This document shows, piece after piece, positions 1,191 to 42,559 of a stretch of 64,000 nucleotides of DNA (positions are counted from its first letter, which is position 1; the number at the start of each line of letters is the position of its first letter). Location of the stretch: assembly GCA_964654585.1 (NCBI GenBank), contig CAZZJR010000003.1:4850-68849 (forward strand). Reading direction: 5' to 3'. A program made the position numbers and the translations under genes. A model generated the notes under the pieces. That model did not search any database. It was not told where the DNA came from and worked only from the letters and a program-made list of their open reading frames with translations. This DNA comes from an uncultured Bdellovibrionales bacterium. Lineage in GTDB: Bacteria; Bdellovibrionota_C; UBA2361; OMII01.

Positions 1191-2014
1191 CTATCTCCCT
1201 CATCTGCCGGCGGCTTAGCGGCTTCGTCATCCGTCTGAAGGAACCGCGCGTCGATTTCGTCAGATGGCTTTAACCGCGCGAGCGCTTCCTCGGCAGCGAT
1301 CTGCTGAGAAGCCTTCTTAGTAGCACCACGGCCGCGGCCAACTATCTGGCCATCGACTTCCACAACTGAAATGAAGACTGGGGCATGTTCAGGTCCCTCA
1401 ACGCACTCAAGGCGGTAGACTGGTGCCTCACTTCCTGATGCATGCAACGCCTCTTGCAGCTCAGTTTTTGGGTCGCGCGGCGTCACGTTTACCAGCTGCT
1501 CTCCGAGCAGTCGCTCGATACATGCCCGCGCGGTATCGTAGCCACCCTCCCGGTACACGGCTCCAAGTACAGCCTCAACAACATCAGCGAGGATCGAGGC
1601 CCTATCAGCCCCCCCACTCGCCAGTTCTCCGCGGCTTAAACGAACAAATTTTCCGAGCTGCAGACCACGGCCAATCTCCGCAAGCGAGCTCGTGTTTACG
1701 AGCGCAGCGCGCATCTTAGAAAGGTCCCCTTCCTTTGCATCCGGGTGCCGATCAAGAAGCAGGTGGGCCACCGCTAAATCGAAGACCGCATCGCCCAGAA
1801 ACTCCAGCCTCTCGTAGTCGCTCTTTACCCCTTTTCCATGCACCGACCGATGCGTCAGGGCACGCTCGAGCCACTCACGCTCTCGGAACACGTAGCCGAG
1901 GGATTCCTCGATCTGGCCGTATCGCTCACGACCTAACGGCTCTGGTGCGGGGCGCTGGGGTTTTTTTTCAGTGTCAGACTCATCGCCGGCGCTGCCGACT
2001 ATTCCAAATCGCAT
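1178..2014 (-). CDS. rnc: Ribonuclease III
   Basis: ORF 1178..2263 contains the RNase III signature ERLEFLGDAV and a C-terminal dsRBD. The ORF-track start overlaps the neighbouring gene. An internal ATG at 2014 (MRFGIVGS...) gives 279 aa and is the more likely start. The 3' end overlaps the der start by 13 nt. Confidence 0.85.
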   Translation of the reverse strand: MRFGIVGSAGDESDTEKKPQRPAPEPLGRERYGQIEESLGYVFREREWLERALTHRSVHGKGVKSDYERLEFLGDAVFDLAVAHLLLDRHPDAKEGDLSKMRAALVNTSSLAEIGRGLQLGKFVRLSRGELASGGADRASILADVVEAVLGAVYREGGYDTARACIERLLGEQLVNVTPRDPKTELQEALHASGSEAPVYRLECVEGPEHAPVFISVVEVDGQIVGRGRGATKKASQQIAAEEALARLKPSDEIDARFLQTDDEAAKPPADEGDSHDD

Positions 2015-2247
2015 GGGGCTCCTCTCAGGTAAGAGCCTCACAATCACAAAAGCAGCCGCCGGATACCGCTCAGGCGCAGCTCTCTTTGGTGATTGAGAGG
2101 AAGTGTAACCGGTTAAGTGTACCAGATTGCGGGGTGTACTCAAAACCCGCCTACCCCAACAACAGCGGGGGGTTAGCGGCTCGTAGCCCATCCCCTCAGG
2201 CGTTTTGGCATCTGTTTCAACAGCGCCGCGGGAGGTATACAACCGGG

Positions 2248-5243: not shown

Positions 5244-5320
5244 GGAGAGAATGTACCGTATCCGAGTTTGAATTGCACACCGCGGTGGCGTTTCGCACCG
5301 AGCCTTTGCATCTCAGGCCC

Positions 5321-6484
5321 TTAAGCACCTGAGGGGGTCTCCCGCACCCTATTTGCCACTCTGGCAATGGCCTCCGCTACCGTGCGAGCAACCCCCAGAT
5401 CGCTGTCACCACGAAAACTTATCCGCACCGTGCTTCCCACCCGGTCGTCGGATAGCCCCATCGCCTGCAGCACGTGCGACGGACCGGGCTTGCCAGAGGA
5501 GCATGCGGCTCCCGCTGACACGAGGATCCCTTCCAAATCAAGCGCGACAACTAGGTCATCTGCCCGAACGCCTGGCACAAAGAGCGATGAAGTATTCGGT
5601 AGCCGCTCATGCCCCGCACCGTTCACTGCGGCGCCCACCACCAACGTACAGACCGATTTCTCAAAATCACTCCGCAAGGCCTCCATGCGATCAATCCGCG
5701 CCGAGAGAGACGCCGACACATTTCGGGCCGCGGCCGCCATTGCACAAGCACCGAACACGTTCTCGGTCCCCCCCCGCATCTTCCCTTCCTGTGGCCCGCC
5801 AAGGATACACGGCGCGATATGCACACCATCGCGCACAACGAGCACCCCGATACCCGATGGAGCACCGAACTTGTGCCCTGAGATCGTCATGCAATCGACC
5901 CCTAGCGCAGAGAACGAGAGTGCTCCTTTTCCCGGAATCTGAGCGGCGTCGGTATGCACAACCGCTCCCGGAGCAACAGACCGTACGACTCCAGCTACCT
6001 CGGCGACAGGATTGAGCACTCCTGTTTCGTTGTTTGCCGCCATGATCGACACCAACGCGCAATCGGGCGTGAGCGCAGCAGCAACGCTTTTGGAGGCTAT
6101 TCGCCCGCCGCTATCCGGAGCAACGAGCACGACATCCCTGCCATACGCAGCAACACGCTTGAGGGGCTCAAGAACACACGGATGCTCGACGGCGCTCGCC
6201 ACTAGCCTTCCTGGGGAGAGGGCCGCACACGAAGCCACAACCGTATTGTTTGCCTCAGTAGCCCCAGAAGTGAAGATAACGTGGTCGCGCTCTCCAGCAC
6301 CGAGGAAACTGCGAAGCTCCGCCCGAGCCTCTTCAAGCGCTGCTCGAGCTAGCTGCCCGTTGCGGTGTAGAGAGCTTGGATTTCCACAGCGGCGTAGGTA
6401 CGCAGTTATAACCCCCTGGAGTTCCTCATCTGGGGTGTAGGTAGCATTTGCGTCGCAGTCAATTACCACAGGAATTAGGCTCAA
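5321..6484 (-). CDS. Cysteine desulfurase (NifS/IscS class V aminotransferase)
   Basis: 387 aa. Motifs SGATEANN, PLP-lysine region ISGHKFGAPSGIGVL, and active-site Cys in SAGAACSSG. Sits immediately upstream of mnmA, a known sulfur-relay pairing. Confidence 0.9.
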   Translation of the reverse strand: MSLIPVVIDCDANATYTPDEELQGVITAYLRRCGNPSSLHRNGQLARAALEEARAELRSFLGAGERDHVIFTSGATEANNTVVASCAALSPGRLVASAVEHPCVLEPLKRVAAYGRDVVLVAPDSGGRIASKSVAAALTPDCALVSIMAANNETGVLNPVAEVAGVVRSVAPGAVVHTDAAQIPGKGALSFSALGVDCMTISGHKFGAPSGIGVLVVRDGVHIAPCILGGPQEGKMRGGTENVFGACAMAAAARNVSASLSARIDRMEALRSDFEKSVCTLVVGAAVNGAGHERLPNTSSLFVPGVRADDLVVALDLEGILVSAGAACSSGKPGPSHVLQAMGLSDDRVGSTVRISFRGDSDLGVARTVAEAIARVANRVRETPSGA

Positions 6485-6568
6485 ATTCTAATGCAAACAG
6501 GCGATCCCGGCCGAACATTCCTACGGGAGGAAAGCGCCGATTAGGTTGCCCTTCCCGGAGACGTTACA

Positions 6569-6865
6569 ATGGCTCCCGCACCAACGCAAAGTATAGGAGT
6601 TGCAAGCGCGCAAGTGCTCGGCACTGCCTACCCGGCCCAGCAGATTCGCTTCACCGAGGCGGCCCAGACGGCTGGCGTTCAAACAAACCAGAATGTAGCG
6701 CGATCACAAAGCAGCGCCACCCAGGCCAGCAGCGACAAGAGCCGCGCGGTAAGCGAGGAGAAGCGCACCGAAGGTATATTCGCCGACCAGTCGCTGAGCG
6801 ATGAGGATGACCGGCACGGCTCGGCGGAGCAGCCTCGTAAAGGCAAGCTCAATAAAGTGGCCTAG
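6569..6865 (+). CDS. Hypothetical small Q/S/A-rich protein
   Basis: 98-aa ORF with GGAG about 8 nt upstream of the ATG. Low-complexity sequence and no recognisable domain. Overlapping ORFs in other frames make this call weak. Confidence 0.3.
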   Translation: MAPAPTQSIGVASAQVLGTAYPAQQIRFTEAAQTAGVQTNQNVARSQSSATQASSDKSRAVSEEKRTEGIFADQSLSDEDDRHGSAEQPRKGKLNKVA

Positions 6866-6930
6866 CCGAGTCTTATTGAGCATCACTTCGCAGTCCACAC
6901 AACCAAGCCGCTAGCAAACGAAACTGCGGC

Positions 6931-7347
6931 ATGAGAAATGTCGAACAGTCTGGTATGCGTTGGAGGATCCTCTCGCTCACATCTCTACTTGGAATCGCTG
7001 TAATCCTGCGCGACGGCGGGAGCTTCGTTGTCTCCAGAACGCTCCACCCTCTGCTTAACACCGCTCGCTTGAACCGAAACGACGCCGAAAGTCTTCTAGC
7101 CCAGGGGCGTCCGCTGTCCCTACTGTGCTCAAGTGCGCAGGACCTTGAGCTGCTCCTAGGGGTCACCGACCGCGTAGCCTCCGAGCTGCTCAGGGAAGCC
7201 GAAAGCCTAGTACGTTTAGCACCGGTGATAGGGGAAGAGGCTGCCTTTGAGAGAGTCCACGGCATCGGCCCGAAACGAGCAGCTTTCTTCGCCACTCACC
7301 TCTCTCTGAACAACTCATGTAGCATGCTTCAGAAAAATATCGACTGA
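6931..7347 (+). CDS. ComEA-like helix-hairpin-helix DNA-binding protein
   Basis: N-terminal hydrophobic anchor (ILSLTSLLGIAVIL), an LNTA motif, and a C-terminal HhH GIGPKRAAFF typical of the ComEA family. An alternative start is at 6955. Confidence 0.55.
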   Translation: MRNVEQSGMRWRILSLTSLLGIAVILRDGGSFVVSRTLHPLLNTARLNRNDAESLLAQGRPLSLLCSSAQDLELLLGVTDRVASELLREAESLVRLAPVIGEEAAFERVHGIGPKRAAFFATHLSLNNSCSMLQKNID

Positions 7348-7416
7348 TAGTGGCTCCATCCGTTATAAAAACTCGGGTTTCGTTTTTTTCGCCCTGGGGA
7401 CGTTAAACGCCAGCGT

Positions 7417-8526
7417 ATGAAGATACTTGTCGTCTGCAAAGCACTTGATCGGCCGGAATCGTTCATCCTGAAGGGCCTGCAAGATTTGGGCGAATCGGTG
7501 ACGGTGCTCACAAGCCAAGAGAACGCACACTCGGAAATGTTGCGTGGAGCTGGCGTGCACGTTCAAACTTTCGTGCTTTCCAGCCGACTCGACCTGCGTG
7601 GAATGCTCCGTCTGCGGCGCATCGTGCTTGAGTCAAAGCCGGATGTGCTCTACGCCCTATCGAATGCGGGACTCGCTGCCGCAAACCTTGGGCTGATCGG
7701 CCTCGGCGTTCCCGTCGCCACGTACCGCGGTACTGTTGGGCACCTGAGTTGGTGGGATCCCTCTTCCTGGCTTACCTTTCTCAATCCAAGGGTGTCGAAA
7801 ATTGTTTGCGTCTCCCAGGCGGTCGAGCAGCACCTCAAGGAGCTAGGACTCCCTCAAGAGCGCGTGGTAACAGTCTACAAGGGGCACGATGTGGCATGGT
7901 ACAGCGCCCCGCCACCCTGCTCTCGGAGAGACCTGGGCCTGCCCGAAAATGCTTTCGTCGTTGGCTGCACCGCTGTCATTAGGGCAGTCAAGGGTGTTGA
8001 TATCCTCATCGCCGCCTGCGCCTCGCTGCTGACAGAGATTCCTTCTCTTCACCTACTCTTGGTGGGTTCAATCCAGGACCCCAACGTCGAAGCAATGATA
8101 GCTAGCTTTCCTGAAAAAAGTCGGGTGCACGTGACCGGGTTCCGCGAAGACGCAACTCGCCTCGCAACGCTATGCGATGTGACTGTCATGGCGTCCAAGA
8201 ATCGCGAAGGCTTCCCCAAATCGGTGGTCGAGGCGATGTCTCAGGGGGTTCCCGCTATCGTCACGTCGGTCGGCGGTATGCCTGAGCTAGTGGGTCATGG
8301 CGAAGCCGGTCTTATGGTTCCCCCGAGCGACTCGGAGGCGCTCGCAGCGGCGATTCGCACACTGGCAACGGACTCTATGCGACGCGAGGCCTTAGGAAGA
8401 GCCGGGAGGCAGCGAATCAAAACGGTGTTTAATGTGGATGGTAGTGTGAGAGCGATGCAGGCGCTTTTTAGGGAGCTATCAACCACAAAACCAACGACTC
8501 AGCGCAACGACCAGAACGCTGCCTAA
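7417..8526 (+). CDS. Glycosyltransferase family 4 (GT-B, RfaG-like)
   Basis: 369 aa. The C-terminal EGFPKSVVEAMSQGVPAIVTSVGG...E motif (E-X7-E region) is characteristic of GT4 retaining glycosyltransferases. Confidence 0.8.
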   Translation: MKILVVCKALDRPESFILKGLQDLGESVTVLTSQENAHSEMLRGAGVHVQTFVLSSRLDLRGMLRLRRIVLESKPDVLYALSNAGLAAANLGLIGLGVPVATYRGTVGHLSWWDPSSWLTFLNPRVSKIVCVSQAVEQHLKELGLPQERVVTVYKGHDVAWYSAPPPCSRRDLGLPENAFVVGCTAVIRAVKGVDILIAACASLLTEIPSLHLLLVGSIQDPNVEAMIASFPEKSRVHVTGFREDATRLATLCDVTVMASKNREGFPKSVVEAMSQGVPAIVTSVGGMPELVGHGEAGLMVPPSDSEALAAAIRTLATDSMRREALGRAGRQRIKTVFNVDGSVRAMQALFRELSTTKPTTQRNDQNAA

Positions 8527-8558
8527 AGCTCCCGCTCCCATCTGCCGTTACTGAATGC

Positions 8559-9164
8559 ATGGATCTGAGCAACCTTGAGAATGGCGATATCGTCATGCTG
8601 TGTGTGGTCGTAAGCGGCATGCTTCTCACTCTCGGCGTGGTAATGCTGCTGAGACCCACGCTCCGATTAATCATTCGTTGGCTGATGAGTGTTATGAACT
8701 CAACCAGCAGGACCGCGCGCGGAAATGCTGCTGAGCTTGGCACAGTCCTCGCGGAGCTTCGAGCTCTCGTCAAGGAGCTTGCGCCGTATGAAGTCGATTA
8801 CCACCACGCATTTTCCCAGGTCGGATGGCCGGAGCTACAGCAGCAGGTACACTCCCTCGGCGAGGCTGAGCAGCGAATTACGGCTTTAATTGAAGAGGGT
8901 TACTACCGTGACGCCGTAACGCTCACATCTTTCCTACTCGACCAGCTTTCCGAACACGCGTGTGATGAAGCAGCCACTCATTTTCCAGAGTTCGAATCGC
9001 TGCGCGGATGGAACGCGCGAGCACACTCAACCCTCGTCTCGATGATTGATGCAGTGCACACGGCAGCCTCTGAGAAACGCAGCCTCGGAATCCAGCCCAG
9101 CCGGGAACGCCGACCTACCCTTGAAACCCTTGCAGAGCTGCGCGAGATTCTTCGCACCCAATAG
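8559..9164 (+). CDS. Hypothetical membrane-anchored protein
   Basis: 201-aa ORF with an N-terminal TM segment (IVMLCVVVSGMLLTLGVVMLL) and no known motif. Its 3' end overlaps lysC convergently by about 50 nt. Confidence 0.4.
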   Translation: MDLSNLENGDIVMLCVVVSGMLLTLGVVMLLRPTLRLIIRWLMSVMNSTSRTARGNAAELGTVLAELRALVKELAPYEVDYHHAFSQVGWPELQQQVHSLGEAEQRITALIEEGYYRDAVTLTSFLLDQLSEHACDEAATHFPEFESLRGWNARAHSTLVSMIDAVHTAASEKRSLGIQPSRERRPTLETLAELREILRTQ

Positions 9165-10425
9165 CACGACTGCTGAGAACCTCGGGAGCGAACTCGTCAT
9201 TGAGCGCCCTCACCGCTGCCTCGCAGTGCTTTCGGGCCACAAGCAGGGAGATCTTGACCTCTGACGTGTTCACCATCTGTATGTCAATGCTCTGCTCAGC
9301 CAGAGCGCGAAACGTCCTGCCGGCAACATCGGTGTGGCTTCTCATTCCGAGGCCCACAACCGATACCTTGGCGATATTTCGCTCTACCGATACTCCCGCG
9401 GCACACAGCTCCGGAACAGCCTCACGGACAACGTTGAGAGCCAAGCTACTCTGCTCATCGGCAACCGTCAGGCTGACCTTTACGCGCCCCGAACCAACAC
9501 CCTCTTGCGAGATCATGTCAACCATCACGTCACGTCGCCCAAGCACAGAGAATAGCCGCGCCATCGTCGCGATGTCCGCCGGCATCGACTCAATAACCAA
9601 ACGTGCCTCATCGAGCCGGTGCGTAACACCAGTCACCACAGGCTTCTCCATAAGCTCCTCCTCAGGCACAATCCATGTTCCATTGACCCCTGGCACAAAC
9701 GGTCCGTCAAAGGTCGAAAGCACTGCAAGCGGCACACCGTAGCGCATCGCGAAGAATACTGAGCGCGTGTGCAGCACCTTCGCCCCGAGGCTTGCCATCT
9801 CAAGCATCTCCTCGTGCGCGACGCGCTCGAGCAGGCGCGCGGTCCGACAGATACGGGGGTCAGCAGAGTAGACACCTCTCACATCCGTGTAGATCAGGCA
9901 GGCCTCGGCCCGAAGCGCAGCCGCCACCGCTACCGCGGTGATGTCCGACCCGCCACGCCCAAGCGTAGTAATGTCGCCCGAGTCGGTGACACCCTGAAAG
10001 CCTGCGATCACCGGGACACCTCCAAGCGCAAGCACAGCTTCTATGGAATCAGTCCCAACTTCCTCAATCAGGGCGTTGGTGTGGCGCGCACTGGTAGAGA
10101 TCTTCGCCTGCGGCCCAAGCAAGCTCTTCGAAGGTACACCGAGTGCGTTGAGCCGCATCGCCAGCAGTGCCACTGTCACCTGCTCTCCGCTCGAAAGGAG
10201 CACGTCGAGCTCCCTGCCTTCCGGCTCGTCGACACAGCTCTGTGCCAGGGCGACGAGCTTGTTTGTCTCTCCAGCCATGGCCGAAAGTACAACTACCAGC
10301 CCGACCCTTGGGCGCGATCGACGGTGCTCGGCTACGATATCCGCCACCCGCTTCACACGCGACACGTCGCCAACCGACGTACCGCCGAACTTCATTACTA
10401 CGATAGGCCGGCGTATCATTTTCAT
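9115..10425 (-). CDS. lysC: Aspartate kinase
   Basis: N-terminal VMKFGGTSV kinase motif, 436 aa, and C-terminal ACT-domain region. Confidence 0.9.
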   Translation of the reverse strand: MKMIRRPIVVMKFGGTSVGDVSRVKRVADIVAEHRRSRPRVGLVVVLSAMAGETNKLVALAQSCVDEPEGRELDVLLSSGEQVTVALLAMRLNALGVPSKSLLGPQAKISTSARHTNALIEEVGTDSIEAVLALGGVPVIAGFQGVTDSGDITTLGRGGSDITAVAVAAALRAEACLIYTDVRGVYSADPRICRTARLLERVAHEEMLEMASLGAKVLHTRSVFFAMRYGVPLAVLSTFDGPFVPGVNGTWIVPEEELMEKPVVTGVTHRLDEARLVIESMPADIATMARLFSVLGRRDVMVDMISQEGVGSGRVKVSLTVADEQSSLALNVVREAVPELCAAGVSVERNIAKVSVVGLGMRSHTDVAGRTFRALAEQSIDIQMVNTSEVKISLLVARKHCEAAVRALNDEFAPEVLSSRAIGCEESRAALQGFQG

Positions 10426-23506: not shown

Positions 23507-25534
23507 ATGGACTTCTCGTTCAGGAGGCGCAGTAGGGTGAATTTCGCGGGTGATTTCGGAACAGTCTGGCCTCAAGCTCTGCTGGGGCTGCCCGTTGCGG
23601 TGGCATTCGCGTTTTTCCTTTTCTGGCGGCTCTCGGTGCGGCGTGCGCGACGGGCGGCACTCGGCGTGGACGGAAGCAGCAGGATGGCTCTCGGTCTCTT
23701 CTCTGCCCTCGCGCCCACGGCCCTTCTCATCCTTGCCGTCAGCCGGCCCTACGTGGGCCGGGAAACGATCGAGCTGCCGTCGGCCAATTCTGACTACATG
23801 TTTATCGTCGACGTAAGTCGCAGCATGCTCGCCAAGGATATAACTCCTTCAAGAATGGAGTTAGCGAAGCGCAAAATGAAGGACATTGTCCGTGCGTTTG
23901 CGCGAGAGGGTGTGGCCACGCGCTTCGGCATAACTGTTTTCGCCGGCGGTGTGTACACCATCTGTCCGCTGACCGATGATTCCGCCGCGGTGCTCCAATT
24001 TATCGACCAAATTAGCCCCGACCTTGTTACGAGTGTTGGGTCGAACCTCGAACAAGCAATCGCTACCGTGCTTGAACGCATCAAAGCATCTGCCGCCCGA
24101 TACCCGCGCATGCTGCTCATCTCTGACGGCGAAGATAACCTGCTCAACGTGCAGCAGGTCGTGGGCCTATTGCGGAGCGCAAAGATCCGGCTCGATGTCC
24201 TAGGGGTTGGCACCCCCATCGGTTCGCCAATAGAGCTGCCCGATGGGCGCTACGTGCGAGACAAGGCGGGGTCGATCGTACATTCGCGGCTTAATGAACA
24301 GTCCCTTCAGCTCATCGCCGCGGCTGGGGACGGCACCTATGTTCGCGCGACAATTTCTGACAAGGATGTAGATGAGCTCGTTGCCGCCGCAACACCCTTG
24401 CTTAAAAGCTCAACCGGAGAGAGTAAACGCTCGGTCACCAACTACCGAGAAGTCGGCTCGTGGTTCGCCTTGGCTGCCGTGCTGCTCATTCTCATGCTGG
24501 TACTTGCGCACCGAAATGGCGTCGCCCTAACAGCTCTGCTGTTGGCTCTTTTCAGCGCAACACCCCTGTTCGCCGAACCGGCTTCGACGCCCATTCCTCC
24601 AGAGATTTCCGGGCGGGCTGGGTTCGACCTGTACCAGACGGGGAAGTACGAGCAAGCTGCCTCAGTCTTCGCACAAGCCCTTGAGGAAGATCCGTCGAAT
24701 CGGGCCCTCGCACAGGGGCTGGCAAGCGCACTCTTCAAGACCGGACAGTTTTCGCGCGCCCAGGAGATCTTCCGAAAGTTAGCCGACTCTGCCGAAGATG
24801 GAAGGGGCTACTTCGAAAACACCTACAACGAGGGCAACGCGTTCCTCGCTATGGGGCGCTTCCAAGATGCCATCGATGCCTACAGCAAAGCCTTGGACGT
24901 AAAGCCTGAGGACGCGATGGCGCTTCACAACCGGACTCTTGCCCGTCGACTGCTTGAGGAATCGAAGCGCGCAACACCAACGAACACTCCGACATCAACG
25001 CCGCCACAATCTCCCTCCGCTGCTCCATCCCCATCAGCTGCCCCCTCGCCATCACCCGACTCGTCGCCCTCGGCCGCACCATCGCCGTCAGCGGCACCAT
25101 CACCTTCCGCAGAGCCCTCTCCGTCGGGTCAGCCTTCGGCCAATCCCTCGGCACAACCTTCGTCACAACCATCGCCGAGCGCGTCGGGTCAGCCATCCCC
25201 CTCACCCGGCGCCTCCGCAGCACCGAGCGCTGGTTCGGCCCCAAGTGGCTCCTTGACCCCCTCTGCTCCCGGCTCTCCGACTGCGGCAGCCACTCCCTCT
25301 ACTTCTGGGCAGGCGCCCGACTCGAACACGCCCGAACCAAGCGAGAGACGCAAAGAAGCCGTCGAGCAAGAAACCAGGACGCCCTTTGCAGGAGCGGCAG
25401 CGGCCCGGCCAACCGCCCCGTCACTCGACCCATCCCTGCGGGAAGCAGAAAACTGGCTCAAGTCTCTTCCGGATGCGCCGCTGCTGCTCCGACGAGACAA
25501 GTCGCGGCGGGATAGCTCTGAACAGACATGGTGA
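23507..25534 (+). CDS. BatB-BatC-like fusion (VWA domain plus TPR repeats) with a Pro/Ser/Ala-rich low-complexity linker
   Basis: 675 aa. VWA motif FIVDVSRSM after 2 TM helices, then a TM helix and TPR-like repeats (YNEGNAFLAMGRFQDAIDAYSKAL), then about 110 aa of (S/A)PS repeats. Confidence 0.8.
   Translation: MDFSFRRRSRVNFAGDFGTVWPQALLGLPVAVAFAFFLFWRLSVRRARRAALGVDGSSRMALGLFSALAPTALLILAVSRPYVGRETIELPSANSDYMFIVDVSRSMLAKDITPSRMELAKRKMKDIVRAFAREGVATRFGITVFAGGVYTICPLTDDSAAVLQFIDQISPDLVTSVGSNLEQAIATVLERIKASAARYPRMLLISDGEDNLLNVQQVVGLLRSAKIRLDVLGVGTPIGSPIELPDGRYVRDKAGSIVHSRLNEQSLQLIAAAGDGTYVRATISDKDVDELVAAATPLLKSSTGESKRSVTNYREVGSWFALAAVLLILMLVLAHRNGVALTALLLALFSATPLFAEPASTPIPPEISGRAGFDLYQTGKYEQAASVFAQALEEDPSNRALAQGLASALFKTGQFSRAQEIFRKLADSAEDGRGYFENTYNEGNAFLAMGRFQDAIDAYSKALDVKPEDAMALHNRTLARRLLEESKRATPTNTPTSTPPQSPSAAPSPSAAPSPSPDSSPSAAPSPSAAPSPSAEPSPSGQPSANPSAQPSSQPSPSASGQPSPSPGASAAPSAGSAPSGSLTPSAPGSPTAAATPSTSGQAPDSNTPEPSERRKEAVEQETRTPFAGAAAARPTAPSLDPSLREAENWLKSLPDAPLLLRRDKSRRDSSEQTW
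25010..25250 (+). repeat. Imperfect tandem approximately 18-nt coding repeat (AAPSPS units) inside the batB/C fusion gene
   Basis: Repeated gct gcN cca tcN cca tca-like units are visible in the DNA and as SAAPSPSAAPSPSPDSSPSAAPSPSAAPSPSAEPSPS in the translation. Boundaries are approximate. Confidence 0.7.
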
Positions 25535-27428: not shown

Positions 27429-28505
27429 TTGACCCCTGCCAAAAGCCGCTGTAGCATACGGCGCATGCCTATCGACGCCCCCTCAGTAAAGGAAACCTAC
27501 CGACAGATGCAGGCCAAGCTGTCAAAGCTTGTGCCTGACGTTGAGCTGCGTATCAAAGCCGAGCTCGTATACGAGATTCAGCGCCGCAAGAAGGAGCGAG
27601 GCGCTATCATTCTCGGTCATAACTACATGGAAGCGGCTCTCTATCACACGGTCGCAGACGTCGTAGGAGATTCACTCGAACTCTCGCGCCGCGCAGCGGC
27701 TACCGACTGCGACCCGATTGTCTTCTGCGGTGTCAGGTTTATGGCCGAGACAGCCAAGATTCTCAATCCAACAAAAACCGTGCTGCTGCCGGCAAAAGTT
27801 GCGGGCTGTTCGTTGGCTTCAAGTCTGACCGCCCAGGACGTGCGCAACTTAAAAGAGCGATACCCGGGCGTTCCAGTAGTTAGCTACATCAATACGTACG
27901 CAGACGTAAAAGCTGAATCCGACATCATCTGCACTTCGGGGAATGCGGTGAGAGTTGTGGAGTCCCTCAAGAGCGACACAGTGATTTTTCTCCCTGACCG
28001 GTACCTAGCCGCAAATGTTGCGAAAGAGACCGGCAAGAAGATCATCTTCCCACACCTCGGCGAACAGCCCAGACTCGGTGAGCAGGCGATGATTGGATGG
28101 AACGGGGTATGCGAGGTGCACGAGCAGTTTACCGTTGATGATATTAACAACGTGCGCAAGCAGTTCCCCGACGTGGTCGTGCTGACTCACCCGGAGTGCA
28201 GCCCCGAGGTGGTTGCTGCTTCGGACTTCTCCGCAAGCACCTCCCGTATGGTTTCGTTCGTAAAGGAATCGAAGGCGCCGCACTTTTTAATCCTGACCGA
28301 GTGCAGCATGGCAGACAACATCATCGCTGAGAACCCAGATAAAAACGTGCTTCGACTCTGCAGCGTTCGCTGCCCTCACATGAACGAGATAACACTTGAG
28401 GATACCCTCAATGCCCTCGTTAATAACGAACAGGTGATCGAGGTTCCCGAAGAGGTCCGCGTCAAAGCGCGCCGCTCTCTCGATGCGATGCTTTCGGTGC
28501 CTTAG
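27429..28505 (+). CDS. nadA: Quinolinate synthase
   Basis: 358 aa with ILGHNYM, cysteine ligands (CEVHEQF, CPHM) and overall NadA layout. The start may be at 27465 (MPIDAPS). Confidence 0.9.
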   Translation: MTPAKSRCSIRRMPIDAPSVKETYRQMQAKLSKLVPDVELRIKAELVYEIQRRKKERGAIILGHNYMEAALYHTVADVVGDSLELSRRAAATDCDPIVFCGVRFMAETAKILNPTKTVLLPAKVAGCSLASSLTAQDVRNLKERYPGVPVVSYINTYADVKAESDIICTSGNAVRVVESLKSDTVIFLPDRYLAANVAKETGKKIIFPHLGEQPRLGEQAMIGWNGVCEVHEQFTVDDINNVRKQFPDVVVLTHPECSPEVVAASDFSASTSRMVSFVKESKAPHFLILTECSMADNIIAENPDKNVLRLCSVRCPHMNEITLEDTLNALVNNEQVIEVPEEVRVKARRSLDAMLSVP

Positions 28506-28526: not shown

Positions 28527-28808
28527 TCAACGCGCATGGCGCGCAAGCTCTTTCATCAGCTCAACCGCATCTCGAAAGGCGTGGGCTTTCTTGTACCCGC
28601 GCTCCGGAATGAAGCCGGCCAACGCCAGTATTCGGAGGTCTGCAAGCATCTTGGCCTGATGCGAGTCACCGTCTAGCTCGTGTTTGACACGACGCAGGGC
28701 CGAGTCCACACCGAAGAAGCGGGCCTCTAACGGCAGCTCAGCCGCTGTTTGGCACCCCTGCTCCAGCTCTTCGCGGATGTTTGGGATTGTCTCTGTCCAA
28801 GGATTCAT
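28527..28808 (-). CDS. Hypothetical 93-aa protein
   Basis: ORF only, with no known motif. Convergent with nadA. Confidence 0.3.
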   Translation of the reverse strand: MNPWTETIPNIREELEQGCQTAAELPLEARFFGVDSALRRVKHELDGDSHQAKMLADLRILALAGFIPERGYKKAHAFRDAVELMKELARHAR

Positions 28809-28851
28809 ACTACTTCCCTGTCTTATGCACTGAGCGACTCCAAAAGAGCCG

Positions 28852-28874
28852 CTGAGGGGACCCGTTCCCCTCAG
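28852..28874. promoter_or_regulatory. Perfect 9-bp stem / 5-nt loop hairpin (CTGAGGGGA-CCCGT-TCCCCTCAG) in a divergent intergenic region
   Basis: Read directly from the sequence. On the minus strand it is followed by CGGCTCTTTTGG (weak T-tract). It lies between the start of the 93-aa minus ORF and the start of the orphan ATPase gene. Confidence 0.3.
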
Positions 28875-29107
28875 GGGTAAGGTACGACCGAATCCGCCCT
28901 TGGCTTAAGAATTCGCCGCGAAAAAGCGCTTCGCGCCGCAATGTGCGTGTAACCTACTGCGAACACGGCTAATTCTCCGCCTCTGCGGCTCTGGACGATG
29001 CACCGGAGTGCCGGCTCACAAAGAGCAACTCTTCAGTAACTGCCCGAGAGGAGGTACTATAGCAGGGTCGTTCAATCGTGCATTCTCCAACTCTCAGGCC
29101 CTAGTCC

Positions 29108-31348
29108 ATGCGTGTTGTTTGCCTTCATATCCCCCGTCGATCGGTAAGCGACAGCGCCGAATTCATCAACACGACTTGGGATGTCAACAACCAGAGCGTC
29201 TTCAAGATTCAGCTAGAAGAGCTGTGCGAGTGCCTGTGGCAACCATTCTCGCTAGAGCTCTACGCACACAGCAACATGGTGTACGTGACCATTGCGGCAA
29301 GTAACGAGGTGGTCGACTTTCTCATGACAGGTCTCTACTCTTGGATGTCGGACCTAGAGATTCATGACGTCGAGGACTACACCTTCAACACGACCCAGAA
29401 GACATTGATTGCGGGGGCCGATTTCAAGCTTTGGCGATCCGACATTTATTGCCTCAACACGTATCACAACCTGCGCCCCGACTCGCTCATACCTGTCGTC
29501 ACGGCTCTCTCGCAGATACCCGAGAGTGACAGAATGCTGATCCAAATTCTCGTGAAGCCAATGGCCCAAGACCTGATGCACCACATCGGGCTTTGGAATG
29601 CTCGGTCAACGGACAAGATTAGCCGACTCTTCCACAGCCGGAACTGGTTCAAGCGTGACATGGGCACCGACACCATCAAGCGTTCCGTCGAGAAGTGCTC
29701 AAAGCGCTTGTTCAAGGTGAACTACAGGATTTCCTCGATTTACGAGCCGCCGGCAGACGCCGCAGAACCGTCGGGGAAAGTATTGCAGCGCCTAGCACGA
29801 AACGTTGAAGCCATAGCTGCCGCGGCGAAAAACTACAACACGGCTGAGGACAACAAACTTGTCCTGCGTTCAATCGAGAGCGGGAGAAAATGGCTGAGAA
29901 AGGTTCAATCGCGCGAGTTCAGCGCTCCATTTAGGGTCACCGCTGACGAATTAACCACTTTTTGGCATCCACCTCTGCTCTCGGCACTGCCCAACACCGC
30001 TCAGGTGCTCGCCAAACGCTCCGTGCCACCACGCGGCTTGCCAACAAATCTTGACGACCCGGAAGTTTGCGCCTTCGCCCACACCAACTTCCGTGACCGC
30101 GAAGATGTCTTCGGAATAAAACGCTTCGACCGGCGGAGGCATCTGTACGTCGTCGGCAAGTCTGGAAGCGGAAAATCGTGTCTGCTCCAGCTCCTCGTAA
30201 AAAATGACATTGAAAAGGGGTTCGGATGTGCGGTTCTCGATCCGCACGGAGATCTGGTCGATGACATCCTGCGACTTGTTCCAAAGCACCGTATCAACGA
30301 TGTCGTTCTCTTTGATCCCTCTGACCCACGCTACGCTCCAAGCTTCAATCCAATGGACCCGATCAGGCCGGAGCTGAAACTCCGAGTGGCACTGAGCTTC
30401 CTCGACGCATTCAAGCGCGCTTTTGGCGCCGACTGGTCGGAGCGCATGGACCACGTACTGCGCTACGCAATGCTCGGGCTTCTCAGTGTGCCAGGCTCAA
30501 ATATTCTATCGCTCCGCCGGATGCTCTCGGATGACGCGTTTCGGGCGGAAATCGTCCGAAAGGCGTCAGATGAGTCTGTCAAGCGTTTTTGGCTCCGCGA
30601 ATTCGCCGCGCGGCGTCCCGATTTTGAGGAAGGACCGATCTCCCGACTTCTCAACCGAATTGACGAGCTTCTCGCCACTGAAACGATGAGAAACGTCCTA
30701 GGCCAATCGTCGAACCTCTTCAACTTTCGCGATTTCATGGACAATCGAAAGATTGTCCTGCTCAAAATATCGAAGGGCACTCTCGGATCAGAAAACGCAA
30801 ACCTCCTTGGTTCCATGCTCATCTGGAAGATTTATGAGGCAGCGATGTCTCGAGCGGACATCCCCGCAGAGCAGCGCGAAGACTTCTTCTTCTACGTGGA
30901 TGAGTTCCAAAATTTTGCGACGGATTCTTTTAGCGAGATCCTCAGTGAGTCGCGAAAGTACAAGCTCTGTCTGACGTTCGCCAACCAGTTTTTGGGGCAA
31001 TTACCGGGTCACGTCAGGCAGACTGTTTTCGGCAACATTTCAAACCTGATATCATTCCGGATTGGGGCCGACGACGCTGGCATGGTCTCTTCGGAGCTGA
31101 CCCCCCACTTCAGCACGGAGGATCTCATAAACCTCCCGCTGCGCGAATTTTACGTGAAGCTCAGTATCGACGGCGAAGTGCAAGACGCGTTCTCCGGCCG
31201 AACAATTGACCTTCTCTATCCGCCTGACACCGACAACCATTCGGAGGCGTGCATCCTTCAGTCACGTCAGAAGTACTGCGTGCCTCTGGGGCAGGTACGC
31301 CAGAAAGCTGCTAGCGGTCCGGCTGGCGGTGCTCCGACAGCGAAATAG
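29108..31348 (+). CDS. Orphan FtsK/HerA/VirB4-VirD4-superfamily P-loop ATPase (TraD/DUF87-like) with a roughly 330-aa N-terminal domain of unknown function
   Basis: 746 aa. Walker A VVGKSGSGKSCLL, Walker B FFFYVDEFQNFAT, followed by a FANQ motif typical of this ATPase clade. The N-terminal 330 aa have no motif I recognise. By eye the gene has lower G+C than its neighbours. Confidence 0.75.
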   Translation: MRVVCLHIPRRSVSDSAEFINTTWDVNNQSVFKIQLEELCECLWQPFSLELYAHSNMVYVTIAASNEVVDFLMTGLYSWMSDLEIHDVEDYTFNTTQKTLIAGADFKLWRSDIYCLNTYHNLRPDSLIPVVTALSQIPESDRMLIQILVKPMAQDLMHHIGLWNARSTDKISRLFHSRNWFKRDMGTDTIKRSVEKCSKRLFKVNYRISSIYEPPADAAEPSGKVLQRLARNVEAIAAAAKNYNTAEDNKLVLRSIESGRKWLRKVQSREFSAPFRVTADELTTFWHPPLLSALPNTAQVLAKRSVPPRGLPTNLDDPEVCAFAHTNFRDREDVFGIKRFDRRRHLYVVGKSGSGKSCLLQLLVKNDIEKGFGCAVLDPHGDLVDDILRLVPKHRINDVVLFDPSDPRYAPSFNPMDPIRPELKLRVALSFLDAFKRAFGADWSERMDHVLRYAMLGLLSVPGSNILSLRRMLSDDAFRAEIVRKASDESVKRFWLREFAARRPDFEEGPISRLLNRIDELLATETMRNVLGQSSNLFNFRDFMDNRKIVLLKISKGTLGSENANLLGSMLIWKIYEAAMSRADIPAEQREDFFFYVDEFQNFATDSFSEILSESRKYKLCLTFANQFLGQLPGHVRQTVFGNISNLISFRIGADDAGMVSSELTPHFSTEDLINLPLREFYVKLSIDGEVQDAFSGRTIDLLYPPDTDNHSEACILQSRQKYCVPLGQVRQKAASGPAGGAPTAK

Positions 31349-31452
31349 TTGCTATCTGCGCGAAGGCCGGCGACACTACGAACGTGTGTTCTAGCTCTGC
31401 CTAAAATCTTCAGGCCTTGCGCACTCGCGGGCAACTATGCACTTAGAAAGTT

Positions 31453-31830
31453 ATGAATAACTACCTGTATGTCGCATTCGGCGGGGGCATCGGGGCGGTG
31501 CTACGCGTCGCGGTTGCGGGCCTGATTCAACAGGCAGCTCCAACCCTATCGTTTCCACTCGCGACTTTCACAATAAACGTCCTAGGATGTTTCTTCGCCG
31601 GGATCATTCTCGCTCTAAGCGACCGGCTCGGCGGCATTGGCGAGCACTGGCGCCACCTCGTAATGACCGGCCTCCTCGGCGGGTTTACAACCTTCTCCGC
31701 TTTTGGGGTTGAAACAGTCGAGCTGATAAAGCGGGGTATGCCAGGGACAGCCGCGAGCTACGCGGCGGGAAGTGTCATCTGCGGGCTCGTGTCCCTCTAC
31801 CTTGCGACTATGCTCGTCGGGCGCAGCTGA
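31453..31830 (+). CDS. crcB: Fluoride ion channel CrcB/Fluc
   Basis: 125 aa with 4 TM helices and the conserved GGFTTFS(A/T)F motif of Fluc channels. Confidence 0.85.
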   Translation: MNNYLYVAFGGGIGAVLRVAVAGLIQQAAPTLSFPLATFTINVLGCFFAGIILALSDRLGGIGEHWRHLVMTGLLGGFTTFSAFGVETVELIKRGMPGTAASYAAGSVICGLVSLYLATMLVGRS

Positions 31831-32802: not shown

Positions 32803-33063
32803 TCACCGCCGCAGTACCCCGATCTTCGCCAGCACCACAGCCGCCGCCCGGAAAAGCTCGCGCGGGATGGGCCGGTCCAGTGGCAGTTCGGCAAGGGAGG
32901 CACACAGCTCAGGTTCTTCAATCACCGGGATACCGTAGCGGCGGGCCACCGCGACCATCTGCGCGGCAAGCTCCTCGCGCCCCACTGCAGCGAGCCTCGG
33001 AGGCTCCTCGTTGTCCGTGGTAGCGTCGAGCGCTGCCGCTTCAAGGTACCTTTCTCTCCTCAT
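32803..33063 (-). CDS. Stand-alone FlhB C-terminal (post-NPTH) domain protein, YlqH/FhlB-domain family
   Basis: The 86-aa sequence AAALDATTDNEEPPRLAAVGREELAAQMVAVARRYGIPVIEEPELCASLAELPLDRPIPRELFRAAAVVLAKI aligns position-by-position with FlhB residues downstream of NPTH (pattern A.AL.YD....AP.V.AKG.G..A..I...A...GIPV.E...LAR.L.....IP..LY.AVA.VLA). Confidence 0.8.
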   Translation of the reverse strand: MRRERYLEAAALDATTDNEEPPRLAAVGREELAAQMVAVARRYGIPVIEEPELCASLAELPLDRPIPRELFRAAAVVLAKIGVLRR

Positions 33064-38708: not shown

Positions 38709-39488
38709 TTACTTGCTACGAGGTGCGCGACGCACCACAACTACCTTCGAGCGCCGAACCCGGCGCTCAAGATCCGCAAACACGAGCGCAGCATGCTCGT
38801 GCTTCCGGGATGCCTTCAGGTGCGGATCCCCTTCTCCCTCTTTGAGCTCCTCACGCAGCTCGTGCAACGACATCCGGTGCTGGCGGAAGAACCTCCAGCG
38901 GGTGAAGCCGTACGCGATTACCGCAACGAGCGACAACAGAATGGCAACCCGCACAGCGAGCCCCCAGACCATTGCCCCCAGTAGTCCGAGCATTTGCTGC
39001 CGTTCAACCGCTAGGAGAACACGAGAGTGCATCGCTAGCGCAACGAAGGCGGGCGTCACCGCCAGCACCAATCCGACCAGGCGAACCAACCCCAACGCGC
39101 CCTCCACGAAGCCTTGCTTCACACGGGAAAGGTACGAGCCAGGTCGTAGTCGCTGAAAACCTTGTAACAGAAGCGAGGGGACGATGAGCGCCCGGCTCTG
39201 AGCCAACTCCAGGACTACGGCACTCACAGCAACCGCCCCGATAGCGAGGGCGACAACCCGGAACCCATCAAGCAGCGCCGCTTTAAGCACCAGCTCTGGG
39301 GCCCACAACTCGCAATTCAACCATTGTATCAAGGAACCACCCCTCACCCAAGAAAGAGTTCCCGCTAGACAGAGCGTCGCTCCCCAACATCCGGAAGCAA
39401 GGGCAACCCATTGTGTTTTAACGACTTTTCCCTCCCTCTCAAGCCTACCCAAGCGCCTTGCAGAGGGTGGAAACTGCTTCTCTGACAT
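38709..39488 (-). CDS. FlhB/SctU-family export-gate protein, truncated at the NPTH autocleavage position (N-terminal membrane domain plus linker only)
   Basis: N-terminus SEKQFPPSARRLGRLEREGKVVKTQ matches FlhB (EKTEQPTPKRLEKAREEGQVPRS). Four TM helices, then the linker HELREELKEGEGDPHLK (compare FlhB ...EFKQSEGDPHVKGR). The ORF stops at ...KVVVVRRAPRSK exactly where ...VIVTNPTH is expected. The likely start is ATG at 39488, overlapping the fliR stop (TGATG). Confidence 0.8.
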   Translation of the reverse strand: MSEKQFPPSARRLGRLEREGKVVKTQWVALASGCWGATLCLAGTLSWVRGGSLIQWLNCELWAPELVLKAALLDGFRVVALAIGAVAVSAVVLELAQSRALIVPSLLLQGFQRLRPGSYLSRVKQGFVEGALGLVRLVGLVLAVTPAFVALAMHSRVLLAVERQQMLGLLGAMVWGLAVRVAILLSLVAVIAYGFTRWRFFRQHRMSLHELREELKEGEGDPHLKASRKHEHAALVFADLERRVRRSKVVVVRRAPRSK

Positions 39489-40237
39489 CAGCCCCCCTCC
39501 CCCGACCCCACCAGCCACCCACCGAGAAGGCCGCCCTGTCGTGCCACGGGGAGCGGTGGGAGTCCGCACACCAGGTCGAGCAGCAGCGCCATAAGCACGA
39601 AGGTGAGAACCCCTTTTGCGATCGAACCGCCCTGAGTGAATTGAAGCCCGCGCACTAACCTGCCAGCTGCCGCTACGACGATGTCAACCATGAGGAACCC
39701 CGCCAACCAGAGGCCGGATATCCCAATCGCTCCCGACAGAATAGAAACGCTCCAACGCAAGAGGTCGTGCGCGCTCTGCATCCCACGCCACGGCGCCCCA
39801 AGAGGAAACACCTCATAGCTATTCGCAAGTTCTCTCAAGGTCACCTCAAGCGCTCCGAGGTACACTGCAACGCCAACTGAAGCCGCTCGACAGATAGCCG
39901 CCAGGTCCGATGCTCCTTGACCACCCAGTGGATCGACCACGGCTGAAATAGTTTGACCGCGCGATGTGTCTACTACCTCTCCACACAGCTCAGCAGTGTC
40001 GGAGAGGAGCCTCAATGGACCCGCTAGGAGTGCACCAACCGCAAACTCCCAGACGCACGAGAGCACCGAGAGGTCTTCGGCAACGGCTACTGATCCGAGC
40101 AGCGACCATGCTAATGCAAGGGCCACGAGCAGCCGCGGGACTGGCTGCATCGAGTCTCCGAATGGCAAGCACGCCAAAACACCGAAAGAGCGAGCCGCGA
40201 GCGCACACAAGAGAAGAGTCGTGTGCTCATCGATCAC
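39488..40237 (-). CDS. FliR/SctT-family export-gate protein
   Basis: 249 aa with 6-7 TM helices and a central DTSRGQTISAVVDPL-type loop typical of FliR. ATGA overlap with fliQ. Confidence 0.75.
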   Translation of the reverse strand: MIDEHTTLLLCALAARSFGVLACLPFGDSMQPVPRLLVALALAWSLLGSVAVAEDLSVLSCVWEFAVGALLAGPLRLLSDTAELCGEVVDTSRGQTISAVVDPLGGQGASDLAAICRAASVGVAVYLGALEVTLRELANSYEVFPLGAPWRGMQSAHDLLRWSVSILSGAIGISGLWLAGFLMVDIVVAAAGRLVRGLQFTQGGSIAKGVLTFVLMALLLDLVCGLPPLPVARQGGLLGGWLVGSGEGG

Positions 40238-40506: not shown

Positions 40507-41166
40507 TCACCCGTAGCTTCGCACTAGGCCGTCAGCAAGCAACAGCCAGCCGTCGGTCGAAATGAACAGAAGAATTTTAAGCGGTACGCTTACTACCACA
40601 GGGCTGAGCATCGTGAGCCCCATGCCAACTAGAAGGTTTGAAACGATCAAGTCTACCACGAAGAATGGGATGAGAAGAAAAAAACCCGTCACGAAGGCGC
40701 GCTTGATCTCCGAAAGCACGAAGCTGGCCAACAGTATCGGGAAGCCATCTCCCTGCGGGGCTTCGACCACCGGCACGGTGTGCCTGTTTCTAAGCTCTCG
40801 AAATACGGCGAGCTCTCGCGACCCGCAGTGTTTCTCAAGAAAATCTCGCCAGGGCACAAGGACCGAAGCAGCCTCTGACAGCAAGGCTGGCACCGGCTGA
40901 GCTGCAAGCCTATCGACTCGCACCCCTTTGATACGCTCAGCAGTGCTCTCCAACACTGGCTGCATCACGACGAGCGACATCACCAGCGAAAGCGCCATCA
41001 CCATCGAGGAGCTCGGAGCCTGTTGGGTTCCAAATCCGCTCTTGAGCAACGTGAGCACGATTGAAAACTTGAGGTAACAGGTGCCAACTGATATCAGCAG
41101 TGGCACGAGAGCCACGACTACCGACGCGAGAAGCAGCGACTCAGGGGACGAGAGCTTCATCTTCAT
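40507..41166 (-). CDS. FliP/SctR-family export-gate protein
   Basis: 219 aa. FliP signatures LKSGFGTQQAP and PFFVVDLIVSNLLVGMGLTMLSP. Confidence 0.9.
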   Translation of the reverse strand: MKMKLSSPESLLLASVVVALVPLLISVGTCYLKFSIVLTLLKSGFGTQQAPSSSMVMALSLVMSLVVMQPVLESTAERIKGVRVDRLAAQPVPALLSEAASVLVPWRDFLEKHCGSRELAVFRELRNRHTVPVVEAPQGDGFPILLASFVLSEIKRAFVTGFFLLIPFFVVDLIVSNLLVGMGLTMLSPVVVSVPLKILLFISTDGWLLLADGLVRSYG

Positions 41167-42058
41167 CCCTCCGGCGACTTCGGCGTTGGGCTGCTGGCCA
41201 ACCTGTAGACAGGCTTGCGTTCTCAGGCGCTCCCTTTAACACCGCTACACTCTGTACCTGAACCCCGGCTCGTATCAATTCGCGCACAACTGCCCCACGC
41301 TCTTTCAGAAGCATCGTAAGGAGCTCCGGAAAAGCAGCTCGCAGCACGACCGAGACCCCCTCCGAACCGCGCTGACTCACTGTTAAGCTCACCGGACCGC
41401 CCCCGGTGACATGCGCACAAGCAACTTTCAGCGTATCCCCCTCTGTGTTTTCGCACGGTGCCGCCTGACACACTGCGGTACGGGGTATTCCTGCATCCCC
41501 TTGGGCGCCCGACTCCTCTGGTAAGTGTCTGGGCGAGAGGTTCAATGCTGCTGGTACGCCGGTCCGAGCCCCCTCATCCTGCAAGCCTCTATCGCTGGCA
41601 GAACTATTAAGGCTCTCCGAGACCCCCTCGCTCACCCGCGTTCGCGCGCGTAGAACCCTCTGAGTTAGGAACATTTCAAGGGAGTCTTCGCTCTGACGCG
41701 ACTCCACAGCAGCTATGTCTTTCCGTCGGCACGCAGCCAACATCGCCACGACCTGCTCTCGCACCGACTCAGCTTTTTGGGTGGCACGGCTCTGCTTTTT
41801 CAATGCTCCCAGCGCCTGAGCATGCAGCTGCTGAGCCTGACTCAGGGCGCGATGCGCACTCAGCGGCCTATCGATACCGCCGATGTGTCCAGAGCCCGAG
41901 GCAACCCGGGCAATCTCGCTCCAGAGCACCCCCTCCGCTCGCTGCACCTGCTCTCGGCGGGTCACCTCTGCTCTATGGATAGAGCAGAGCCGAGCCTCCT
42001 CTCTCCGGCACTGAAGCTCAACACACGCTCTCTTCGCTGCTAGGAGGGCACGTTCCAT
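41141..42058 (-). CDS. Putative FliJ(SctO)-like coiled-coil protein fused to, or followed by, a FliK/SctP-like T3S4 (Flg_hook) C-terminal domain. Gene model is uncertain
   Basis: ORF 41141..42271. The first 71 codons are G/R-rich and likely non-coding, so ATG at 42058 (MERALLAAKRACVELQ...) is preferred. Residues about 70-215 are coiled-coil with FliJ-like charge patterning. The C-terminus PVSLTVSQRGSEGVSVVLRAAFPELLTMLLKERGAVVRELIRAGVQVQSVAV resembles the FliK/SctP substrate-specificity-switch domain pattern. An alternative-frame ORF (42067..42372) ends 9 nt upstream of this ATG. Confidence 0.45.
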   Translation of the reverse strand: MERALLAAKRACVELQCRREEARLCSIHRAEVTRREQVQRAEGVLWSEIARVASGSGHIGGIDRPLSAHRALSQAQQLHAQALGALKKQSRATQKAESVREQVVAMLAACRRKDIAAVESRQSEDSLEMFLTQRVLRARTRVSEGVSESLNSSASDRGLQDEGARTGVPAALNLSPRHLPEESGAQGDAGIPRTAVCQAAPCENTEGDTLKVACAHVTGGGPVSLTVSQRGSEGVSVVLRAAFPELLTMLLKERGAVVRELIRAGVQVQSVAVLKGAPENASLSTGWPAAQRRSRRRDEDEALVP

Positions 42059-42559
42059 CTCGACGCTCACTGCGGCTGCTGAAGCTTTCTCACCGAAGCT
42101 ACCCCGCTCTCGGCTACTTTTGAGACGAGCTCGACCTGAACCTGATGCCGGCACACGTCCATCTGGAGCTTGATCATCTCGCTGAGCTGCTTCAATCGAA
42201 GGTCCGCACCGGCGCCCGCTCTTGGGGATCTGTTCGCCCCGCTCAGCGCCTGTTCGAACACCTCCCCCCAACCTGAACCGCTGTTCGCCCCTACAACGGA
42301 CGAAACTGCCTCAGGAACTGCAACCGCTGCTCCCCCCCCTGTTACCCTCATGTTTCTCCTCCTACGAGCCAAGGCGCGCCTAGTGGTACCCCCGATCGGT
42401 GTGACGGCCCGACCTACTGATGAAGTTCGCGGCTCAAGGCCTAAAAGTTTCGGGCTCCGTTCACGCCCTTTTGCCAGTTGGAAAATCCCTTTCCTGGTGA
42501 CTGGTTAGGGGGTAAGAAGAAGGTGTCTTCGCGAGCCTGCGCCGCGGACAAATAAAGCC

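Follow-up and report, generated by a model that had tools for sequence, protein, structure and literature searches.

Conjugation and type IV secretion have VirB4 and VirD4 as their signature motors. VirD4-like homologues of type IV coupling proteins (T4CPs) occur in 2,918 of 3,035 Patescibacteria genomes (5,713 in total, 148 of them near virB4), and in S. epibionticum the T4CP homologue is given as non-essential and the genes of the type IV secretion system (T4SS) as essential, according to passages of Quinonero-Coronel et al. 2025 (PMC12102498). The S. epibionticum T4SS is described, in passages of Wang et al. 2023 (PMC10633639), as having no recognisable coupling protein or relaxase. Passages retrieved by search term from both articles mention neither a VirB4-like N-terminal domain nor Bdellovibrionota members.

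A gene encoding a 746-aa ATPase was analyzed in a 64,000-nucleotide stretch of DNA (the window) from an uncultured Bdellovibrionales bacterium (assembly GCA_964654585.1, contig CAZZJR010000003.1, positions 4,850 to 68,849). By its C-terminal half, the protein is a P-loop translocase of the VirD4/TrwB-VirB4-HerA branch. The gene is native and ordinary within its subfamily, a catalogued but uncharacterised group of T4SS-type ATPases, and is not a novelty brought in by horizontal transfer. What sets this Bdellovibrionota lineage apart, to a modest degree, is that its copies are soluble, duplicated and unlinked to T4SS genes in the DNA covered.

Architecture of the ATPase

The open reading frame (ORF) and its domains and motifs are as follows.

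29108..31348, + strand: ATPase gene, 746 aa, ATG start, complete in the ORF list; A-type paralogue of the Bdellovibrionota clade
29108..30061, + strand: N-terminal domain, aa 1 to ~318, predicted VirB4/TrwK N-terminal-domain fold
30062..31237, + strand: C-terminal RecA-like nucleotide-binding domain of the VirD4/TrwB-VirB4 type, aa ~319–710
30155..30178, + strand: Walker A (P-loop) GKSGSGKS, aa 350–357
30239..30256, + strand: DPHGDL motif, aa 378–383
30368..30742, + strand: all-alpha insertion between Walker A and Walker B, aa ~421–545, helices from the AlphaFold2 (AF2) model
30884..30916, + strand: Walker B FFFYVDEFQNF, aa 593–603
30953..31003, + strand: RKY ... T..ANQFLGQL block, aa 616–632

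The start of the protein, MRVVC(I/L)HIPR, is kept among homologues, and mean column identity is 66% in a 26-sequence alignment. Both nucleotide-binding boxes named in the first-pass annotation, Walker A VVGKSGSGKSCLL (aa 348–360) and Walker B, are present, with core residues invariant in 49 homologues. Invariant positions are G350, K351, G353, G355, K356 and S357 in the P-loop, all of DPHGDL, and F593, Y596, D598, E599, Q601, N602 and F603 in Walker B. R616, K617, Y618, T623, Q627, Q631 and L632 of the RKY block are also invariant. DPHGDL aligns with DPNGDM of TrwB, and the RKY block with GRKAGL...GLQSTSQL of TrwB; from what is known of coupling proteins, we take this block to hold a candidate Arg finger and sensor glutamines. 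With Walker A, DPHGDL, the DE of Walker B, RK and QxxxQL all invariant in the 49 sequences, the catalytic motifs are intact.

Four Pfam models match the C-terminal half above their gathering scores: T4SS-DNA_transf (35.5 bits vs 20.1), DUF87 (33.9 vs 23.2), TrwB_AAD_bind (26.8 vs 20.5) and TraG-D_C (23.0 vs 22.0). Reference sequences for TrwB and TrwK of plasmid R388 were taken from NC_028464. The C-terminal half aligns to R388 TrwB with an hhalign probability of 94.5% (E 7.5e-8, 268 columns); the aligned region starts at Walker A, crosses the all-alpha insertion and ends at QxxxQL. The original placement in the TraD/VirD4/HerA-like superfamily is upheld by these matches. TrwB_AAD_bind covers aa 343–632, hence the insertion, which the TrwB alignment also crosses; the insertion is the equivalent of the coupling-protein all-alpha domain. 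The Pfam models CagE_TrbE_VirB, AAA_10 and TraC_F_IV do not match the window protein, and a PDB profile search lists TrwB, not VirB4. By sequence, the C-terminal half thus reads as VirD4/TrwB-like rather than VirB4-like, closest to the coupling proteins.

The N-terminal domain had been put forward as a possible novel substrate-recognition or effector domain. A search with this domain alone against a local copy of Pfam gave no match, even with E allowed up to 10. However, PF26449 is listed as a precomputed Pfam annotation for many homologues, and a search with this domain only returned 132 representatives in which it is nearly always N-terminal in proteins of 700–1100 aa. An AF2 model of the ATPase built on the 49-sequence alignment is confident (pLDDT 85.3, pTM 0.70), and two methods match the fold that it predicts for the N-terminal domain to that of the corresponding domain of VirB4/TrwK. 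The domain is a constitutive, family-wide part with a predicted VirB4-type fold, so the idea of a novel effector domain was not borne out.

No transmembrane-like segment is found in the window protein (maximum 19-residue Kyte-Doolittle hydropathy 1.20), and it is predicted to be soluble. An N-terminal hydrophobic anchor is present in 0 of 34 Bdellovibrionota-clade sequences vs 21 of 33 others (an Embleya protein described below included), and in 23 of 23 homologues from the candidate phyla radiation (CPR) in alignment A2.

Family membership and vertical descent

More than 1,400 homologues were found in a large protein database, and every one of the 120 best clusters is full-length, with 53–91% identity over ~99% of the length. 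A scan of species-representative genomes placed the close homologues in metagenome-assembled genomes (MAGs) of uncultivated freshwater Bdellovibrionota or 'Deltaproteobacteria'. Related assemblies repeatedly hold two paralogues, an A-type 57–93% and a B-type 53–55% identical to the window protein. Neither a second copy nor any other DUF87-type ATPase is encoded in the window itself. Distant full-length relatives with 30–43% identity occur in many classes of Patescibacteria (CPR), which are ultra-small symbiotic bacteria, and the CPR members of alignment A2 are 34–38% identical to the window protein. Public records name the Bdellovibrionota proteins 'hypothetical protein'. With this many homologues, and paralogues in each related genome, the earlier label of orphan does not hold in the sense of a unique gene.

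In a rough neighbor-joining (NJ) tree, the Bdellovibrionota copies are monophyletic, with A-type and B-type as sister clades, and are nested among CPR-type sequences. The picture drawn is one of an old acquisition (or shared ancestry) followed by duplication within the lineage and vertical inheritance thereafter. One related locus (L014, CANLCB010000006.1, ~4552..10240) carries a B-type and an A-type gene on the same strand with one 369-aa gene between them; this near-tandem pair may be a remnant of the duplication that made both paralogues. Five loci (L044, L046, L047, L070 and L073) are labelled 'uncultured Gammaproteobacteria', yet they hold anchor-bearing CPR-type homologues and have the same neighbor gene clusters as Daviesbacteria, Saccharimonadales and Woesebacteria loci. 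Those labels are probably wrong.

The first-pass annotation had read a lower G+C content as a sign of horizontal acquisition. The lower value is real, at 0.544 for the ATPase gene vs ~0.59 for the window, but the deficit is limited to codon positions 1 and 2 (GC1 0.573, GC2 0.398), and GC3 is 0.661 against a window norm of ~0.64–0.67. The same codon-position pattern is seen in nadA (total G+C 0.550), and G+C is just as low in other segments of the window. A leave-one-out model of synonymous codon choice puts the ATPase gene 38th among 42 genes for atypicality (z = +1.17), so that it is more typical than most window genes. The identical-codon fraction at conserved residues, measured against two related loci (L001 and L009), is 0.48–0.49 for the ATPase and 0.46–0.54 for BatD, NadA and the histidine kinase (HisK); because these values match, the ATPase gene has co-diverged with its neighbors. 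Recent horizontal transfer was rejected as an explanation of the composition on GC3, codon rank and identical-codon fraction. The inference of acquisition also fails on position, since the gene shares its chromosomal slot with orthologues of 57–93% identity, and on codon usage, which is typical of the window; average codon usage was the refuting condition set in the first-pass annotation itself.

Amino-acid identity to the same two loci is 91% for the ATPase, 90–93% for NadA and 63–66% for thiamine pyrophosphokinase (TPK). The ATPase has a dN/dS of ~0.01 with saturated dS. An apparent excess of dS (NG86 estimate of ~4 vs ~1.4 for neighbors) was dismissed as a saturation artefact on the identical-codon fraction. 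The ATPase is under strong purifying selection, constrained as NadA is and more than TPK.

A tblastn search against 72,556 plasmids gave only distant matches (≤34% identity), nearly all to the ATPase half only, and matches in phage genomes are to the ATPase half only. The sole plasmid match that also spans the N-terminal domain is a protein of the actinobacterium Embleya sp. NBC_00896 (WP_331738717.1), with 27% identity over residues 78–702. It has the same N-terminal domain (hhalign 96.2%, E 2e-9, 310 columns) and the same ATPase domains as the window protein. Its gene lies between those for a VirB4-type ATPase and Replic_Relax, with VirB6-like (TrbL_4), PrgI (VirB3-like) and NlpC/P60-SLT genes alongside. 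The Embleya relative occupies the coupling-protein slot of a monoderm (Gram-positive)-type conjugative T4SS; therefore, this architecture exists in a T4SS coupling-protein position. Unlike the window gene, which has neither, the Embleya gene has T4SS neighbors and encodes an N-terminal hydrophobic segment.

Gene neighborhood and upstream region

Features flanking the ATPase gene are as follows.

27429..28505: nadA, upstream of the ATPase gene, identified by Pfam
28527..28808, − strand: 93-aa gene, divergent to the ATPase gene, also predicted by public gene callers
28849..28877, no strand assigned: hairpin between the two divergent genes, with 12-bp arms (92%) with a 9-bp perfect core CTGAGGGGA/TCCCCTCAG, and a 5-nt loop
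29053..29060, + strand: candidate extended −10 element GGTACTAT, ~48 nt upstream of the ATG
31453..31830: crcB, downstream of the ATPase gene, identified by Pfam

The gene had been placed between nadA and crcB. Both flanking genes are correct, but it does not directly follow nadA, as the 93-aa gene lies between and had been overlooked. The window is ordinary chromosome, with genes for MnmA, aspartokinase, GlmM, FtsH, a MoxR/Bat operon, NadA, CrcB, TPK, a PAS/GAF histidine kinase, flagellar export, PutA, FtsY, SMC and UbiA. No integrase, transposase, relaxase, T4SS, nuclease or Sir2 gene is present in it.

ORFs were called and clustered in 78 related loci with flanks of up to 10 kb. At least 12 loci share the A-type slot, in the order BatA/B, BatD, nadA, a short variable segment, the A-type gene, crcB (in some), TPK, a gene resembling the C-terminal part of FlhB, and HisK. 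The B-type slot differs, with neighbors that by eye resemble UGPase, mannose-6-P isomerase, saccharopine dehydrogenase, an aminotransferase and AsnRS. CPR copies adjoin genes that by eye resemble DnaK/DnaJ, CysRS, IleRS, DnaX, Lon and EF-G. No T4SS, relaxase, nuclease, Sir2 or defence partner was found in the 78 loci. The earlier statement that no canonical partner gene lies nearby is thus confirmed in the window and in its relatives.

Some gene clusters recur beside the homologues. A cluster of ~368 aa (C1) is always downstream of the B-type gene; by eye it resembles a saccharopine-dehydrogenase-type enzyme and gives no functional clue. A cluster of 580–650 aa (C28), by eye resembling an N6-adenine DNA methyltransferase (NPPW motif), directly adjoins distant homologues in L032, L034 and L075. 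This adjacency, in two independent lineages, may be chance or may hint that some clades have a link to restriction-modification or defence. A third (C10), by eye resembling ComM/YifB (Mg-chelatase-like), recurs within ~8 kb of the B-type gene in L015–L037 and near the CPR-type homologues of L044 and L063; this is probably coincidental synteny.

In an iterative hidden Markov model search, a homologue of the 93-aa gene was found upstream of the A-type gene in 13 of the 13 A-type loci with that flank, directly adjacent in 11. It is absent beside B-type and CPR homologues. The gene is under purifying selection (dN/dS ~0.18), and the protein carries a C-terminal motif, DLR..ALAG...ERGYKK..AFRDAVE, with no match in Pfam, NCBIfam or PADLOC. 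It is possibly a lineage-specific partner or regulator of the ATPase; the evidence is weak because synteny in the region is conserved anyway.

The perfect 9-bp hairpin reported upstream of the ATPase gene was found again at its position. Read on the minus strand, it resembles a terminator, with a T-run after the stem, and lies ~35 nt before the start of the 93-aa ORF, in the leader region of that gene. Only its AGGGG/CCCCT core is conserved in L001 and L009. The sequence GGTACTAT is kept in the three closest loci while its flanks diverge, and may be an extended −10 element; a scan for sigma-70 consensus promoters gave no site. No Rfam family was detected at the gathering threshold anywhere in the window, including the 300-bp region upstream of the ATPase gene, and no fluoride riboswitch was detected by Rfam in the 104-nt spacer before crcB (31349..31452).

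Other features of the window are as follows.

23507..25534, + strand: BatB-like protein with VWA and TPR; its C-terminal third consists of a long Pro/Ser/Ala repeat of low complexity (PSAAPSPS...)
32803..33063, − strand: stand-alone 86-aa gene resembling the FlhB C-terminus (Bac_export_2), adjoining the TPK gene, an arrangement kept in related MAGs
38709..39569, − strand: full-length flhB of a fliPQR-flhB cluster, ~6 kb from the 86-aa gene
1735..4104, + strand: 789-aa ORF, no Pfam match at E up to 1e-5
57094..59223, − strand: 709-aa ORF, likewise without a match
62494..63726, + strand: 410-aa ORF, likewise without a match
41141..42271, − strand: 376-aa ORF, likewise without a match

Proposed role and comparison with known systems

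We favor, with moderate confidence, a domesticated and soluble ring-translocase ATPase of the coupling-protein type, with a chromosomal and non-conjugative role. By analogy with TrwB, VirB4, HerA and FtsK, the protein would assemble into a ring (hexamer), and ATP hydrolysis would be coupled to engaging and threading a substrate, either DNA or nucleoprotein or an unfolded protein. The motor would have been domesticated in this lineage for its chromosomal role, and may either hand its substrate on to a membrane channel whose genes lie elsewhere or act wholly in the cytoplasm.

Several points weigh against the domesticated translocase. Ring formation, substrate threading and any partner channel would carry over from relatives. 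T4SS genes were sought in the window and, in related loci, within flanks of up to 10 kb, and a T4SS could lie elsewhere in the genome. Homology of the N-terminal domain to VirB4 comes from AF2 models compared with solved structures and is unsupported by sequence profiles, R388 TrwK aligning to the window protein with an hhalign probability of only 3.8%. NCBIfam equivalog cut-offs of the TraD/VirD4 type (TraD, conju_CD1115) are missed widely, at 43.3 vs 250, 27.5 vs 366 and 20 vs 647 bits. The NJ tree has no support values. Identity with the Patescibacteria T4CP homologues, as these appear in passages of PMC12102498, is drawn from names and domains.

A working coupling protein, or a second VirB4-like energiser, that recruits DNA or protein to a T4SS encoded at another site of the genome is possible though unlikely. 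The motor domain is coupling-protein-like, and the Embleya relative is encoded within a T4SS cluster, beside a relaxase-like gene. Coupling-protein genes often lie away from virB4 (passages of PMC12102498), and the S. epibionticum T4SS locus lacks a coupling protein of its own (passages of PMC10633639). Yet neither the window nor any of ~35 Bdellovibrionota loci contains a T4SS or relaxase gene, the membrane anchor that docks coupling proteins is missing, both paralogues lie in housekeeping contexts, and the CPR homologue is reported as non-essential in an organism with an essential T4SS (passages of PMC12102498). An anti-phage defence ATPase of the HerA, DptH or MADS kind with an unrecognised effector partner is quite improbable, even with mad8 as the best PADLOC match (E 9e-13), weaker matches to HerA models, and the methyltransferase-like C28 genes beside three distant homologues. 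No nuclease, Sir2, methylase or other effector adjoins the gene in the window or in Bdellovibrionota loci, the predicted N-terminal domain is VirB4-like and not a HAS barrel, and NCBIfam HerA_antiphage_2 scores 14.9 bits vs a cut-off of 850. Defence genes are typically patchy and mobile, whereas this gene keeps a stable syntenic position under selection like that on a core gene.

A housekeeping FtsK-like paralogue for chromosome segregation or DNA pumping would suit the housekeeping context, the vertical inheritance and the shared superfamily. Pfam FtsK_SpoIIIE is, however, not significant for the window protein (E 0.05–0.2 in relatives), and the gamma domain, membrane domain and linker are all missing; on these grounds an FtsK paralogue was rejected, and we rate a role of this kind as very improbable. 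Least credible is the first-pass reading of a recently acquired ATPase with a new substrate-recognition or effector domain. The lower total G+C and the lack of a local Pfam match for the N-terminal domain agree with it, and an ancient transfer between a CPR-like lineage and the Bdellovibrionota ancestor is compatible with the tree. Native GC3 and codon usage, conserved synteny with co-divergence of neighbors, the absence of mobile-element genes from the window, and the family-wide conservation of an N-terminal domain with a predicted VirB4 fold all stand against recent acquisition.

A more specific and speculative proposal, which we regard as unlikely but worth stating, is a T4SS-independent domesticated translocase, with a VirB4-type N-terminal domain on a VirD4-type motor, that has a core function common to host-dependent Patescibacteria episymbionts and this Bdellovibrionota lineage. 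If true, it would be a present-day intermediate between VirB4 and VirD4, the two canonical ATPases of the T4SS. Bdellovibrionota is a largely predatory phylum, and a possible role would be the movement of DNA, nucleoprotein or protein during host or prey contact. The Bdellovibrionota motor would then have become soluble and split into two specialised paralogues, one paired with the lineage-specific 93-aa protein. The pairing of a VirB4-like N-terminal domain with a VirD4-like motor is relevant to how these two ATPases came to diverge. The family also bears on the function of the many 'orphan coupling-protein homologues' of Patescibacteria, and on whether a conjugation motor was recruited for a core cellular task.

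Like the T4CPs (VirD4, TrwB, TraD and DotL), the window protein has a profile-recognisable nucleotide-binding domain with Walker A and B motifs and an inserted all-alpha domain. T4CPs differ in having an N-terminal transmembrane domain, in place of which the window protein has a 320-aa VirB4-like domain, and in their linkage to a relaxase or T4SS; the window gene has neither nearby and is chromosomal, vertically inherited and duplicated. With VirB4, TrwK and TraC it shares the plan of a VirB4-type N-terminal domain (predicted fold) followed by a RecA-like C-terminal ATPase domain, but it has no sequence-level match to them and no VirB3, VirB6 or VirB8 neighbors. In contrast to HerA, DptH and MADS systems, it lacks a HAS-barrel N-terminal domain and a NurA, Sir2, DUF4297, DptFG or methylase partner, and the gene is core-like, syntenic and strongly constrained. 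The motor profile, gamma domain and membrane domain of FtsK/SpoIIIE are all absent. The CPR homologues carry names such as DUF87, T4SS DNA-binding or conjugative DNA transfer family and lie among housekeeping genes; by names and domains, the Patescibacteria T4CP homologues in passages of PMC12102498, which are encoded away from virB4, are probably the same family as the window protein. The window protein is homologous over its full length, N-terminal domain and ATPase alike, to the PF26449-containing DUF87/T4CP-like proteins of CPR and Bdellovibrionota.

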